DNA of 64,000 bases from Botryllus schlosseri (lineage: Eukaryota). The notes under the pieces are model-generated. The model searched no databases, was not told where the DNA came from, and saw nothing but the letters and a program-made list of their open reading frames with translations. Where the stretch lies: the NCBI GenBank assembly GCA_051294905.1, contig CM119371.1, forward strand, positions 496,001 to 560,000. The letters run 5' to 3'. A program made the translations under genes and the position numbers. The first letter of the stretch is position 1, and each line of letters begins with the position of its first letter. Positions 59,374 to 64,000 of this stretch are shown piece by piece.

Positions 59374-59636
59374 AAAACAGGTGTTATAATGCGAAGTGAC
59401 CTACATATTCTGCGGAGACAAATGACTATGGTATCCTGTCGACTGAATCACTACGCGAATTGCTTCCCATCGAACAGGTTGGTCTAGAAGCAATCCGTGA
59501 GCGTAAAACAGGTGTTTTAATGTGTAGTGACCTACATTCCGCAGGGCAAATGACTATGGTATCCTGTCCGCTATAGTGGATGTATCGTGAATTGTTTCCC
59601 GTGGAACAGGTTGATCTAGAAGCAATCGTGAGCGTA
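59374..59636. repeat. Two-copy tandem repeat, period about 131 bp
   Basis: aaaacaggtgtt...gtgacctaca...caaatgactatggtatcctgtc...gaacaggttg.tctagaagcaatc.gtgagcgta starting at 59374 and 59505. Confidence 0.9.
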
Positions 59637-59762
59637 CACAATACCAAATACAATCGCTCAGCGCAAAACTGACCCACTGTGTTAAGTATATCACGAATCA
59701 CAGATGACACGAAAATATGCACCAACCATTGTGTATTGTGAAACAGTAGACACACATATATA

Positions 59763-60359
59763 TCATTCTTGTAACTCTAGAATTCGAGTTAACTGGTCAA
59801 TCTTTAATCTTCCATCCTGATTTTTGACGCGCGTTAGTGCATACTTTCTCCCTTTTTTTAAACCAGGCGAGGTCCACTGATCGAGTTTGACAGTTCCGGT
59901 GTCATCGCTTAACGTAAAACTATGTAGTTTGAGGTCTTCGCCATTGACGGGGATGGATTTTTCCTCATGGTCGGTACATATCGCATTGATTGAAATATAT
60001 TTTTCGCTGCCTATATTGTTACAGCTTACAACGGCGTATTCGTCTGGGGTGTGTTTTGATCTGCCATGAATAGTAACAGACGAACTGCGACCGAGTAGCA
60101 AAGTAGGTTCCCCCGTAAACTTATCGAGTCGAGCCCAGGCTGTTTTGATGAGTAGTCGCTTGCGTTTCCTAAAAGCTTTTTCGATGGGTTTGAACAGTTC
60201 TTGGTTGAAACAAGTGAAGGGTATAGTATTGTTCTCGTTGTCTATAAATACACCTTTCAGGTAACTACTAACGAGCCCTTTTTTCGGGGAGGAAACAAAC
60301 TTTACTGCAAGTCGCAGGTCCGATGATTTTCCAATGGTCAATCCTTGTATACTATCCAT
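59763..60359 (-). CDS. Tandem OB-fold single-stranded DNA-binding protein (RPA/SSB-like), 198 aa
   Basis: Two OB-like units: KGVFIDNENNTIPFTCFNQ and SINAICTD...HSFTLSDDTGTVKLDQW...KKGRKYALTRVK; intact ATG-to-stop ORF with TATA box. Confidence 0.75.
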   Translation of the reverse strand: MDSIQGLTIGKSSDLRLAVKFVSSPKKGLVSSYLKGVFIDNENNTIPFTCFNQELFKPIEKAFRKRKRLLIKTAWARLDKFTGEPTLLLGRSSSVTIHGRSKHTPDEYAVVSCNNIGSEKYISINAICTDHEEKSIPVNGEDLKLHSFTLSDDTGTVKLDQWTSPGLKKGRKYALTRVKNQDGRLKIDQLTRILELQE

Positions 60360-60404
60360 TGCTATGATGTCCAGATAATGATCATTACCGTGGGGTTACT
60401 CGTA

Positions 60405-60428
60405 TTTTATAGACCTAGTCACGTGACC
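60405..60428 (-). promoter_or_regulatory. E-box plus TATA promoter of the SSB gene
   Basis: Minus strand reads GGTCACGTGAC-TAGGTC-TATAAAA, about 46 nt upstream of ATG 60359. Confidence 0.55.
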
Positions 60429-60555
60429 ATAAACGCGTAGTTACTCGGTTTAGAAGTTTGATAAATCGCCTGAACAGACTTGGTTTGAAATAATCCTTGC
60501 AGGAATTCTGTAAATAAAATCATGGTGATAGTTTTATGATTGTGTAGTCTGAAAT

Positions 60556-60888: not shown

Positions 60889-61015
60889 ATTGTGTAGTTA
60901 CTGACAATAAAAACTGTAAAAATTCCGGTAATTAAGTGATCGTACATCGGAAATTAGAATGAATAAAAGGTTGTTATAATAAACAGAGTAACACGATATG
61001 AAATAGGAAGAAGGT

Positions 61016-61038
61016 GCGCGTGGCGGGAAAGAGGAAGT
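61016..61038. promoter_or_regulatory. E2F-like and Ets-like sites in a divergent promoter
   Basis: GCGGGAAA (61023-61030; reverse complement TTTCCCGC, the E2F consensus) next to GAGGAAGT, in the 251-bp gap between divergent ATGs 60888 and 61140. Confidence 0.45.
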
Positions 61039-61139
61039 AGTTCTGAATAAATAGGTCCTCAGTAAACTGGTAAATCCCACTCGCTCATACCGAATATCAT
61101 CCGTTGATCAGTATACCTCGATTTTAATTTGTGTTAATC

Positions 61140-62027
61140 ATGGCCCAGGCTCAGTTGAACAGATTTAATACCCTCGGGTATGAACCTAATTCTTTTGAGT
61201 TGCAATTTGAAGAAGATGCGGATATTTTGGAGGCCCTCCTACCCGAAGACCTCGTTACTCCAACGACAGAGGTCGTTGAGTGTGATTCCACGACCCCTAT
61301 CGAAAACCAACCACCTCACCGTGACATCACACTACAGGCATGGTTGGAATCACGTGGTTCGAACCAAGTCGCGGTTGACAACCCGACAACCTCGGCTTCG
61401 AGCTTACCCCTTCCAGATGAACCGACAACTTCAATTGTGTTACCAGTTGAGAAACCGGCAACTCCTCGTAAGATTTTTCCAAAATCTAGAGTTCGATCCA
61501 CGGTACCGTCTGAAAAACCGACGACCTCTCGAAGGTTATTTTCCGGCCTACCGAAACCACAGATCCCAATCGAGAAACCGTCAAGTTCTAGAAAGCGAGA
61601 TGTACCCACAACCTCGCAACAAACCAGTCCACCTCCGTGTAAAAAGATATGTCTCTCTAAATCGAAACAAAAACCTTTGGTTCTCAACCAGGTGAAACTC
61701 GGCGAGGGTGAAGATCGGCCGAAGACATCGAGAGAAAGACGACAAGAGGAGAAAATGTGTCTGTACACCGCCAACAAAATTCGAGACCATCTCAAGACTC
61801 TTGATGTGATTAGACCACACCTAGGCGTGATTCTAGGTTTAATTGATTCCCTTACAGAAAAGAAGAAACCTTCCCTGCACAAAATCATTCTCGAAATAAA
61901 AAAGCTATTAGCTTCGGCTATTGAACGCCGTGATATTGATCGGATTCAAAAACAACTGAACGATGCAACCGACCAATTCCTGAACCAGCTCTTAACAATT
62001 AGAACCATCTTGAAATATGATTTGTGA
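61140..62027 (+). CDS. Hypothetical viral protein, 295 aa: acidic N-terminus, Pro/Ser/Thr-rich repeats, basic motifs, helical C-terminus
   Basis: ATG at 61140 (atcATGg); intact ORF; repeats EKPATPRKIF / EKPTTSRRLF / EKPSSSRKR; PPPCKK. Confidence 0.8.
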   Translation: MAQAQLNRFNTLGYEPNSFELQFEEDADILEALLPEDLVTPTTEVVECDSTTPIENQPPHRDITLQAWLESRGSNQVAVDNPTTSASSLPLPDEPTTSIVLPVEKPATPRKIFPKSRVRSTVPSEKPTTSRRLFSGLPKPQIPIEKPSSSRKRDVPTTSQQTSPPPCKKICLSKSKQKPLVLNQVKLGEGEDRPKTSRERRQEEKMCLYTANKIRDHLKTLDVIRPHLGVILGLIDSLTEKKKPSLHKIILEIKKLLASAIERRDIDRIQKQLNDATDQFLNQLLTIRTILKYDL

Positions 62028-62540
62028 TTCAGTGCAATGCATTTATTGTGTGAATGTGAATGTTAATGTGATGTGTATGAAATTACAGATAACAGGCTTA
62101 CAAACGATCGGAAAATCGTAAACACTAGATAGTGCTCGCATTGGGTTAATCTCAACGCAGTCAACTCGGTCTTTTCCACCTGGCCGTCGCCACGAGAGGA
62201 TCTCGAATCTGCGCTCGTGAATATATTACCAATACACGTGTAAGTATACACTGATCTTATTCAATAGACCAAAGTTTGTGTTAACGCGATGTTTTCTTGC
62301 TTCATCGAAACAGAGAAAGAGAAGAAGAATCAAGCCCAATCATCGAACTTATTGCATCGGTGAGTTCTCTGTTTTTTTACTACCTTAAGTTGGTGAACAT
62401 AATTTTGAGGAAGGTTGTTTCTTTGTTTACCAGGTGAAAAAGAACTCAAGATTTCAAGGGAAAAAATATAAGTAAGTGTTACTATCTCGTTGATTATTAG
62501 AATACAGAGTGTGAAATTGAAATCGAATTCAATGTTACAG

Positions 62541-64000
62541 ATGAGCCGTCGCAGAAGACACCGTATCCGTGAGAAAGCTGAATTTCCACCAGATATTGGT
62601 GATGAACGTCAAGAAATTTTAACACAGAACTGGCAAGCCATAAAATCGTATGTAGCAAACATAGGCAGATCTCGAGTGGTGTACAATATTCGGATTATAA
62701 ATCGTCAACTCTCAGCTGTTCGCGAGGACATCGAAGCGATATTCTTCTCTGAATCGTGTAGATTTAAAGTCAACTATTCATCTGGCTGTATTCTATACCA
62801 CACCGAGACTCTAAGATATCGTTATTTTCATGCATCGTCAAATATCGATCGTGTTCTGGATATGCCATTGGCTATTTCATCATTGATACAGTTTGAAAAA
62901 TTTGTAGAATCCATTAGATTGGAAACTGCATTTGATGTATTGCGTAAAGCCCGACCAGATACTAAATCACAGCCTGTTTGTCTAACAAATATACAGTTTT
63001 ACGTATTCCCTAGCGATAGGTTATTGATAGGGTGTACTGATGTTAATCTTCCTCTGTGGCTTACAAAATCGAAATGTGTCATGACACTACTTCATGATAA
63101 AAATCGTAATCGGTATAACGATAATCTGTGTGTATTTCGTTGCATTGGCCACTCGCTCGATCGTGATGCGAAATCATTGGCTGAACAGTATACCCAGGTT
63201 TATGGTGTGAACGTTGTTGGTTGTGTAACTTTTGAAATGTTACCTGACATCGAAAGATTGTTTGATGTAGCGATATCTATCTATCGTAAGACCGATGGTA
63301 AAGCTATTGCTGTCCGACGTAGTACTTATGTAGCCACTCCTGTTTATTTACACCTCGAAAATTCTCATGCTTGCTTGATAACTCAGATCAATCGATACCT
63401 CGAAAGCTATCATTGTGAATCTTGTGGAAAATTTTTCGATCTTGCAACTCATCTGACCAGGCACAACTGCATCACTGAACCTGTCGAGATATTTCCCGGC
63501 GGGATATATAGACCACCTTTGACGGTATTTGAACGAATGGAGATTGAAGGCATAATTGTCCCAAATCATTTACGTTTTTTCAAATATCGGATTGCCTTCG
63601 ATATCGAGAGTATGTTTCAACAATGTGATTTTGATCCCTCAGCTAAAACGACTTACGAGTGGAAGCATATTCCAATTTCCGTTAGTATATCATCAAATGT
63701 AGACGGGTATTTGGAACCACAGGTAATTGTTTCTAATGGTGATCCAATTCAGTTGTGTGAAGAGATGGTAGAGATTTTTCATACAATTCAGAGTCGATCC
63801 TTAAGTCTGTTGCTAGTTGAATACCGTCAATATCTGGATTTGTTTGAATCTAAAATCACAGAGATGAAAGTATTAGACCCCTCGGACAAGCCTTTACCAT
63901 TGGAACGTTTACAAGATGAATTCATGTGCTATCTAAGGCGAATACCAGTTATATCTTTTAATGGTGACAGATACGACTTGAACTGTCTTAAGGTATACTT
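62541..64000 (+). CDS. Protein-primed family-B DNA polymerase (Polinton/adintovirus-like pPolB), N-terminal 486 codons, truncated by window end
   Basis: Hand-translated with no stop: FKVNYSSGCIL...YRYFHASSN, RPDTK, IG...LP, YNDNLCVFRCI, zinc finger CESCGKFFDLATHLTRHNC, ExoI IAFDIES, HIPISVS, ExoII PVISFNGDRYDL; absent from the ORF track because there is no stop. Confidence 0.9.
   Translation, partial: MSRRRRHRIREKAEFPPDIGDERQEILTQNWQAIKSYVANIGRSRVVYNIRIINRQLSAVREDIEAIFFSESCRFKVNYSSGCILYHTETLRYRYFHASSNIDRVLDMPLAISSLIQFEKFVESIRLETAFDVLRKARPDTKSQPVCLTNIQFYVFPSDRLLIGCTDVNLPLWLTKSKCVMTLLHDKNRNRYNDNLCVFRCIGHSLDRDAKSLAEQYTQVYGVNVVGCVTFEMLPDIERLFDVAISIYRKTDGKAIAVRRSTYVATPVYLHLENSHACLITQINRYLESYHCESCGKFFDLATHLTRHNCITEPVEIFPGGIYRPPLTVFERMEIEGIIVPNHLRFFKYRIAFDIESMFQQCDFDPSAKTTYEWKHIPISVSISSNVDGYLEPQVIVSNGDPIQLCEEMVEIFHTIQSRSLSLLLVEYRQYLDLFESKITEMKVLDPSDKPLPLERLQDEFMCYLRRIPVISFNGDRYDLNCLKVY

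Follow-up and report, generated by a model that had tools for sequence, protein, structure and literature searches.

A Maverick/Polinton-type family of Botryllus schlosseri with a conserved three-gene accessory module and a candidate tandem OB-fold protein

What kind of element occupies the right end of a 64,000-nucleotide stretch of the Botryllus schlosseri genome (GCA_051294905.1, contig CM119371.1:496001-560000; this whole stretch is hereafter called the window), where four closely spaced open reading frames (ORFs) end in a protein-primed family B DNA polymerase (pPolB)? An initial annotation, made from the sequence of the window, had read them as an apparently intact and recently integrated DNA virus of an undescribed lineage, equipped with an adenovirus-like early toolkit consisting of an SSB (a protein that binds single-stranded DNA, ssDNA), a Bcl-2-like protein, a protein with cell-cycle motifs and the polymerase. 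We followed the element beyond the window and searched the assembly (495.5 Mb, 219 contigs) for its relatives. We found that the locus is a crippled copy of a multi-copy Maverick/Polinton family, and that its left arm is a conserved three-gene accessory module, ORF1–ORF3. A farther-reaching reading, to which we assign a probability of roughly one in three, is that this host's Mavericks encode a protein-primed replisome that is self-contained, and in which a dedicated RPA/LEF-3-like SSB with tandem oligonucleotide/oligosaccharide-binding (OB) folds, encoded by ORF1, would stand beside a polymerase composed of terminal protein (TP), vOTU protease and pPolB, and that the family may still replicate as an endogenous virus.

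The element spans positions 59216 to about 74577 of the window (15,362 bp), with about 10.6 kb lying beyond the window end; all coordinates are window positions, and those above 64000 are extrapolated from DNA fetched downstream of it. Its terminal inverted repeats (TIRs) pair 59217-59475 with 74576-74319 in inverted orientation at 98.8% over 259 bp, so that the two arms differ at 3 of 259 positions, and a further pairing joins 59651-59706 to 74322-74268 (56 bp at 94.6%). The hexamer ATAGTC flanks both ends as a target-site duplication (TSD). Taken alone, the window copy would equally suit an 8-bp duplication. However, the termini read A/GTAG in five of the six examined, and a sibling copy has its own 6-bp TSD, GACGGT, under the identical terminus model. 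Because the A/GTAG terminus and the matching flanks occur in both the window copy and the sibling, we take the TSD to be 6 bp long and the element to run from 59216 to about 74577. A 6-bp TSD is a feature of Polintons/Mavericks. The start had initially been placed at 59374; this position is the beginning of a tandem duplication of about 131 bp within the left TIR, and the element itself begins at 59216/59217. From left to right, the features are as follows.

59210 to 59215, no strand: left copy of the TSD, ATAGTC (6 bp), found by inspecting the flanking sequence
59216 to 59706, no strand: left TIR region, including the tandem duplication of about 131 bp (59374-59505 and 59505-59636), from inverted pairing and direct repeats
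59763 to 60359, minus strand: ORF1, an open frame of 198 aa, candidate tandem OB-fold (RPA/LEF-3-like) ssDNA-binding protein
60556 to 60888, minus strand: ORF2, an open frame of 110 aa, a small protein predicted to be all-helical
60889 to 61139, no strand: spacer between the divergent ORF2 and ORF3, presumed from gene orientation to be a two-way promoter
61140 to 62027, plus strand: ORF3, an open frame of 295 aa (298 aa from 61131)
62532 to 64000 (alternative start 62490), plus strand: N-terminal 489 codons of pPolB, open to the window end and running on to about 66393
Beyond the window, downstream of pPolB: a gene of 171/180 aa
67611 to 68219: A32-type ATPase of 202 aa (Pox_A32, PF04665, 23.8 bits against a cut-off of 22.8; Walker A motif)
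Beyond the window, listed between the ATPase and the integrase: genes of 115 and 135 aa
68938 to 70014: rve integrase with chromodomain, an open frame of 358 aa (PF00665, 1e-14, 55.1 bits; PF00385 Chromo, 1e-9)
Beyond the window, listed after the integrase: four genes connected by 4-nt overlaps
Beyond the window, listed after the overlapping genes: capsid-family gene, from its homologues and its Atlas placement
73802 to 74248: protease-like gene of 148 aa, from its H, D, Q and C residues
About 74578 to 74583, beyond the window: right copy of the TSD, ATAGTC, found by inspecting the flanking sequence

The pPolB frame contains the two exonuclease motifs reported initially, ExoI (FDIE, 63597-63608) and ExoII (FNGDRYD, 63957-63977). 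First Pfam and PDB sequence scans, made with the in-window pieces, gave no significant match. The continued frame matched PF03175 at 26.5 bits (cut-off 25.8), and its part downstream of the window has variant motifs A and B in addition to a DTDS motif C. The initial annotation had also named core features to be sought downstream, and the polymerase motifs, an A32-type ATPase, an rve integrase and a right TIR with its TSD were all found there. For the capsid protein and the protease that it had likewise named, the outcome was mixed: a capsid-family gene and a gene with adenain/Ulp1-like residues are present, but neither has Pfam backing. The capsid-family protein (423 aa in a sibling) has 145 homologues, down to E 5e-129. 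Most of those that bear a name are called 'uncharacterized protein F54H12.2-like'; they come from lizards, turtles, salamanders, fishes, an ant and an octocoral. The nearest homologues are 47-49% identical. The protein Atlas placed the protein at 0.98 to clusters in which 14-30% of the members bear DJR-like_dom. Pfam recognized no domain at E<=0.01 in the seven homologues scanned, and a literature search on 'F54H12.2' returned nothing. In the protease-like gene, H53, D60/D67, Q95 and C102 are invariant across three copies and are what we take to be the Ulp1/adenain catalytic set; Pfam gave no match to this 148-aa protein. The order of genes is identical in one sibling and in one copy of another pPolB subfamily, the one at 65-68% identity.

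Judged by gene content, TIRs and TSD, the element very probably belongs to the Mavericks/Polintons and is adintovirus-like, and the core genes, TIR and TSD agree with the class to which it had initially been assigned. In the parts of the literature considered here (Starrett et al. 2021, PMC8502044; PMC11161782), Polintons/Mavericks, including adintoviruses, have in common with it a pPolB, an rve integrase, an A32/FtsK ATPase and, on our tentative assignments, a Ulp1/adenain-like protease and a capsid-family gene, as well as TIRs, a 6-bp TSD, a size of about 15 kb and an accessory block upstream of PolB. Unlike the elements described in those parts, this one has an integrase that bears a chromodomain, and its left-arm genes are without detectable homologues in the collections searched, save one relative of ORF1 and a 51-aa fragment for ORF2.

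We found that the window copy has many relatives in the genome. Ten loci, the window's included, have the left 4.5-4.8 kb or so in common at 93-100% identity, and there are fragments besides. For pPolB there are at least 43 genomic matches in three subfamilies, mostly open; these counts are lower bounds, with 42 of 369 first-look candidates scored. One subfamily, at 92% identity or more, has at least 12 rows, 3 of them with a long, stop-free frame of 1306 aa; the second, at 65-68%, has at least 27 rows, 24 of them without stops; and the third, at 61-62%, has at least 4. The accessory genes recur still more often, with the following values, in which dN/dS was computed among siblings, in pairs that are phylogenetically non-independent.

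ORF1: at least 150 genomic matches, in-match stops in 5 of 150, about 56% amino-acid identity to divergent copies, dN/dS 0.17
ORF2: 120 genomic matches, in-match stops in 7 of 120, about 51% amino-acid identity to divergent copies, dN/dS 0.28
ORF3: 113 genomic matches, in-match stops in 19 of 113, about 40% amino-acid identity to divergent copies, dN/dS 0.32

ORF1–ORF3 are real genes, under purifying selection and conserved between subfamilies. The four closely spaced, uninterrupted ORFs were found as initially described, and their recurrence and low dN/dS exceed chance. One subfamily, at about 80% nucleotide identity, is altogether without ORF1. Elsewhere, matches to ORF1 often come as inverted pairs about 9-24 kb apart, mostly about 11 kb (for example on C7, C2 and C12 of the assembly), and ORF1 therefore apparently lies inside long terminal repeats in some subfamilies, twice per element. 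Within the subfamily of the window copy, one copy's TIRs are 1.3 kb long and take in most of ORF1.

Synonymous divergence between the window copy and its siblings is 0.02-0.15. Together with the 3 differences in 259 TIR positions, this indicates that the insertion is young relative to the diversification of the family. It was no lone recent arrival: the copy belongs to a group of about ten siblings, and related Maverick copies number more than 100. Taken together, the family appears young and is possibly still active.

By contrast with many of its relatives, the window copy itself is dead or crippled, as three of its genes beyond the window are broken. Its pPolB frame is 1125 aa long, compared with 1306 aa in three siblings, and one further sibling has an equally short frame. 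The reading frame of pPolB changes at a homopolymer run located after motif B and before the DTDS motif C. In the 277-codon gene, a base substitution, which is not a length error, has made codon 33 a premature stop. In the capsid-family gene, a frame shift near codon 325-330 leaves a frame of 331 aa. The copy is consequently not the intact element that the initial annotation had supposed.

We also looked for transcripts, mapping four sequencing runs onto positions 59001-69000 of the window at 97% likeness or more. A bulk RNA run, of which about 6% was read, gave 12 reads. From about 3% of a single-cell RNA run came 52 second-mate reads, 42 of them themselves on the plus strand; on this strand, reads accumulate most strongly close to the 3' ends of ORF3, of pPolB and of the 180-aa gene. 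These reads fit a low level of sense transcription from one or another subfamily member, with a strandedness that we infer. In addition, the contigs of two presumed RNA runs have three gaps of 72-79 nt a short way upstream of where pPolB starts (62234-62541); one of these skips has GT..AG ends and is present in both runs. They may represent short leader introns, or else another copy's indels.

The candidate SSB of the family is ORF1. A PDB profile search with ORF1 gave archaeal RPA OB domains as its best matches (E 0.37-0.51, not significant), in which a DDTG..W stretch is aligned with the same stretch of ORF1. With an AlphaFold2 model, in which a first part with the strand pattern b-b-b-a-b-b precedes a second domain that is all-beta, the top rows of Foldseek were RPA70 DBD-A/B (E 1.6e-3, probability 0.92), Teb1 AB, HIN, baculovirus LEF-3 and the RPA heterotrimer, at a TM of about 0.24. 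LEF-3 was also recurrent among the weak BFVD rows, and SSB proteins figure in the weak match lists as well. For residues 115-198, VIA-align returned mostly small beta-barrels, OB folds included, with Z at most 4.8, below the noise guide. None of these fold matches is individually significant, but several converge on one fold class. On these predictions ORF1 is rather likely to adopt an OB fold, and the chances that it acts as an SSB in strand-displacement replication appear evenly balanced. The initial suggestion of an OB-fold SSB is therefore reasonable in view of several weak fold matches, though no single one reaches significance. ORF1 resembles RPA70 DBD-A/B, Teb1 and LEF-3, its top weak Foldseek matches, in its predicted tandem beta-barrels; unlike them it is much smaller, at 198 aa, it has no significant match and its ssDNA binding is putative. 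If it is an SSB, its functional parallels would be phi29 p5, adenovirus DBP and baculovirus LEF-3. No SSB of a Maverick or adintovirus was found in the literature searched, in which the supplement of Starrett et al. is represented in part.

According to the parts of Krupovic et al. 2024 (PMC11161782) considered here, polinton pPolBs start with a TP domain, followed by a vOTU protease. By analogy, the roughly 350 residues that precede ExoI in this pPolB probably correspond to TP plus vOTU. Between the presumed vOTU region and ExoI there is a C2H2-like zinc-finger motif, C-x2-C-x12-H (63414-63464), which has weak zf-C2H2 and PDB zinc-finger matches only. Farther downstream, an insert of about 110 aa between motifs A and B (about 64840-65170) contains a GCFFHSH..C stretch, which may resemble Vsr-type endonuclease inserts; Pfam gave no match in the insert. 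Nematode Polintons, the subject of Jeong et al. in 2023, are said to form multi-copy families within one genome and reportedly have pPolBs with inserted endonuclease-type domains. In contrast to those, an inserted domain is here hinted at by a motif alone, in the insert that separates motifs A and B, where Pfam is blank. Homing-endonuclease inserts are reported in polinton pPolBs, again within the parts of PMC11161782 considered.

In the replication cycle that we propose by analogy with the family, the linear DNA of the element would be replicated by protein priming with its own pPolB, whose N-terminal extension would be expected to supply the TP and the vOTU protease, and ORF1 would coat the strand displaced in this process. 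The A32/FtsK-type ATPase would then package the DNA into a double-jelly-roll capsid, which the Ulp1/adenain-like protease would mature, and the rve-chromodomain integrase would insert the element and thereby produce the 6-bp target duplications. Many open sibling frames, purifying selection on the accessory genes and sense RNA reads together suggest that the family may still replicate in this way as an endogenous virus.

Several observations weigh against our description of a crippled Maverick/Polinton copy and of the roles of its genes. ORF1 has a single external relative, with 55% identity, among 5.8 billion clusters, which makes for a shallow alignment and a poor AlphaFold2 model (pLDDT 47), and hhalign found no similarity between its N-terminal and C-terminal halves. 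Pfam at E<=10 returned nothing for three segments of pPolB, namely the presumed TP, the presumed vOTU and the insert between motifs A and B. The assignments of TP, vOTU and protease rest on familiar motifs and one paper's generalization. The capsid assignment lacks Pfam backing, with Capsid_N at E 0.05-0.08 and PF21738 in 1 of 32 homologues (E 0.17), and a PDB profile search with the capsid family gave no match. Nine of the 12 bulk RNA reads fit partly only, and the RNA reads are not assignable to the window copy. Finally, both frame changes might be assembly errors, the one in pPolB being at a homopolymer run.

Would the locus be better described, as initially proposed, as an intact, recent and possibly active representative of an undescribed lineage of midsize dsDNA viruses with an adenovirus-like early toolkit? 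The four in-window frames are open, the TIR arms are nearly identical, three sibling pPolB frames are long and open, and low-level RNA reads are present. Moreover, a scan of IMG/VR with pPolB found no relative and the capsid homologues reach 47-49% at best, so that the lineage is absent from those collections at the family level. However, the base-substitution stop in the 277-codon gene and the frame changes in pPolB and the capsid-family gene speak against an intact virus, and the hallmarks all fit Mavericks/Polintons, a described class, in a multi-copy family. The toolkit fares no better. Its Bcl-2 and cell-cycle labels failed the tests described below, and the idea is already in print for adintoviruses, for which the parts of PMC8502044 considered here describe both Bcl2 homologues and Oncoid genes upstream of PolB. 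We therefore regard this proposal as quite improbable. With the adenovirus early set (DBP, E1B-19K, E1A and pTP-Pol) the element shares a protein-primed polymerase and possibly an adjacent dedicated ssDNA binder. Unlike adenoviruses, it has an integrase and TIR/TSD features, and no link of sequence or fold to DBP, E1B-19K or E1A was found. We know of no adenovirus with an integrase and TIR/TSD features. That the ORFs are instead ordinary host genes, or a domesticated cluster, has a negligible chance of being right: such genes would account for open frames and nothing more, whereas the ORFs lie within TIRs and a TSD, are found more than 100 times over in the company of the same neighbours and are linked to pPolB, integrase and ATPase.

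The 110-aa ORF2 had been labelled Bcl-2-like, and it could in principle be a very divergent, miniature Bcl-2-fold blocker of apoptosis, comparable to the small proteins with this fold in large DNA viruses. Consistent with this idea, its AlphaFold2 model is all-alpha, with six helices (pLDDT 49), and a hydrophobic helix comes right after a conserved DWNG motif. About 20 of 50 weak Foldseek rows belong to the Bcl-2 family (A1, Bcl-2, Bcl-xL, Mcl-1, Bax and fowlpox FPV039) at 13-20% identity, and Bcl2 homologues have been published for adintoviruses (PMC8502044, in the parts considered). However, the best of these Foldseek matches has an E value of 1.7, with probabilities of at most 0.16 and TM of 0.2-0.3, on a poor model and against a PDB crowded with Bcl-2 entries. 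Membership of the Bcl-2 family by sequence failed: PF00452 matched 0 of 10 ORF2 paralogues at E<=10, beyond which Pfam gave two unrelated single-member matches only, and a comparison by hhalign with five of the genome's own genuine Bcl-2 ORFs gave a probability of 0.5%, with DWNG not aligned to NWGR. A PDB profile search returned an ACT-domain protein alone (E 0.52), and a wide VIA-align run gave generic helical matches (Z at most 6.4), with no Bcl-2-family chain in 50 rows. Among 1.84 billion representatives, the ORF2 profile had 13 matches, namely 12 long proteins and the 51-aa fragment, and no Bcl-2 relative. Because the 12 long proteins each match one short stretch of the profile repeatedly, and the 4 that were scanned with Pfam are NHL-repeat proteins, we take them to be repeat-driven false positives. 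A Bcl-2 fold for ORF2 is thus unlikely. Nor was a PF00452 gene found among the ORFs of the element that were scanned with Pfam, in which respect the element differs from adintoviruses as described in the parts of PMC8502044 considered.

The 295-aa ORF3, the supposed cell-cycle protein, has an acidic N terminus, a disordered middle that is rich in S, T, P and K and bears repeats, among them a 30-nt repeat present three times, and a conserved helical C-terminal region of about 90 aa. In the parts of PMC8502044 considered here, an Oncoid is defined by LxCxE, usually together with a CK2 site, a CR1 motif or paired CxxC, and adintovirus Oncoid genes typically lie upstream of PolB. ORF3 has this position, since it ends at 62027 and pPolB begins at 62532 on the same strand. 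Hub-binding viral proteins typically have such an acidic N terminus and a long disordered middle, and ORF3 is kept in all three subfamilies under the selection noted above, all of which would suit an Oncoid/E1A-like binder of Rb-family proteins. By contrast, LxCxE, the relaxed form [LIV]xCx[DE], CR1 and CxxC are absent from 9 of 9 ORF3 paralogues, which have only generic [ST]xx[DE] sites, and in the five paralogues that diverge most, R stands in place of the cysteine of the VVECDS stretch of the window ORF3. ORF3 therefore differs from its counterparts in adintoviruses, within the parts considered, as a gene at the Oncoid position without Oncoid motifs. Nor did we find a homologue or family for it: there was no usable Atlas match, and an alignment-based homologue search gave none. 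An alternative role, as a stand-alone TP-like replication-initiation factor, which its place right before pPolB would suggest, is made unlikely by the TP domain within polinton pPolBs (PMC11161782, in the parts considered), which renders a separate TP needless. We consider it very unlikely that ORF3 is either an Rb-family binder or such an initiation factor.

Among the genes beyond the window, the consecutive genes of 277, 225 and 130 aa (70266-72162) have a homologous C-terminal domain of about 80 aa in common (30-39% identity) and are joined by 4-nt start/stop overlaps. Judged by this similarity, they may be paralogous structural proteins, perhaps penton-like, and they are the candidates for a minor capsid protein of the single-jelly-roll type.

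While examining ORF2, we observed that genuine Bcl-2 genes are abundant elsewhere in this genome, in the form of at least 150 intronless Bcl-2-domain ORFs of 170-228 aa that score 73-82 bits, above the Pfam cut-off, and have NWGR and GGW motifs. They often occur as inverted pairs 3-20 kb apart (for example C4:13119113-13122442 and 13124347-13127676), and two pairs that we examined are reverse complements across the whole 3.3 kb fetched, at 99.0-99.6%. The Bcl-2 loci have no nucleotide similarity to the Maverick loci. We considered whether the pairs might be the ends of another Maverick family and dropped the idea, as the 10 kb between one wide pair is without an ORF of 100 aa or more. What we see suggests that a Bcl-2 gene was amplified on inverted repeats with long arms, and a many-copy intronless gene on repeats unrelated to the Mavericks is a separate oddity. 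About 13 kb to the left of the element, a 491-aa open frame on the minus strand (44743-46218) contains a NACHT domain (E 7e-13) and a NOD2 winged-helix, and is probably a host NLR-type exon. An Rfam scan over the entire window found no family.

For the most part, this finding is one of annotation, in that an apparent new virus turns out to be one slightly decayed member of a Maverick/Polinton family, which has colonized the genome more than 100 times. One point is potentially new, namely the conserved tandem-OB SSB-like gene. If ORF1 binds ssDNA, it would be a component of Polinton replication that is absent from the literature searched, as far as its sources were covered. With its many open pPolB frames and traces of RNA, the genome of B. 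schlosseri is a candidate system for asking whether animal Mavericks are still active.

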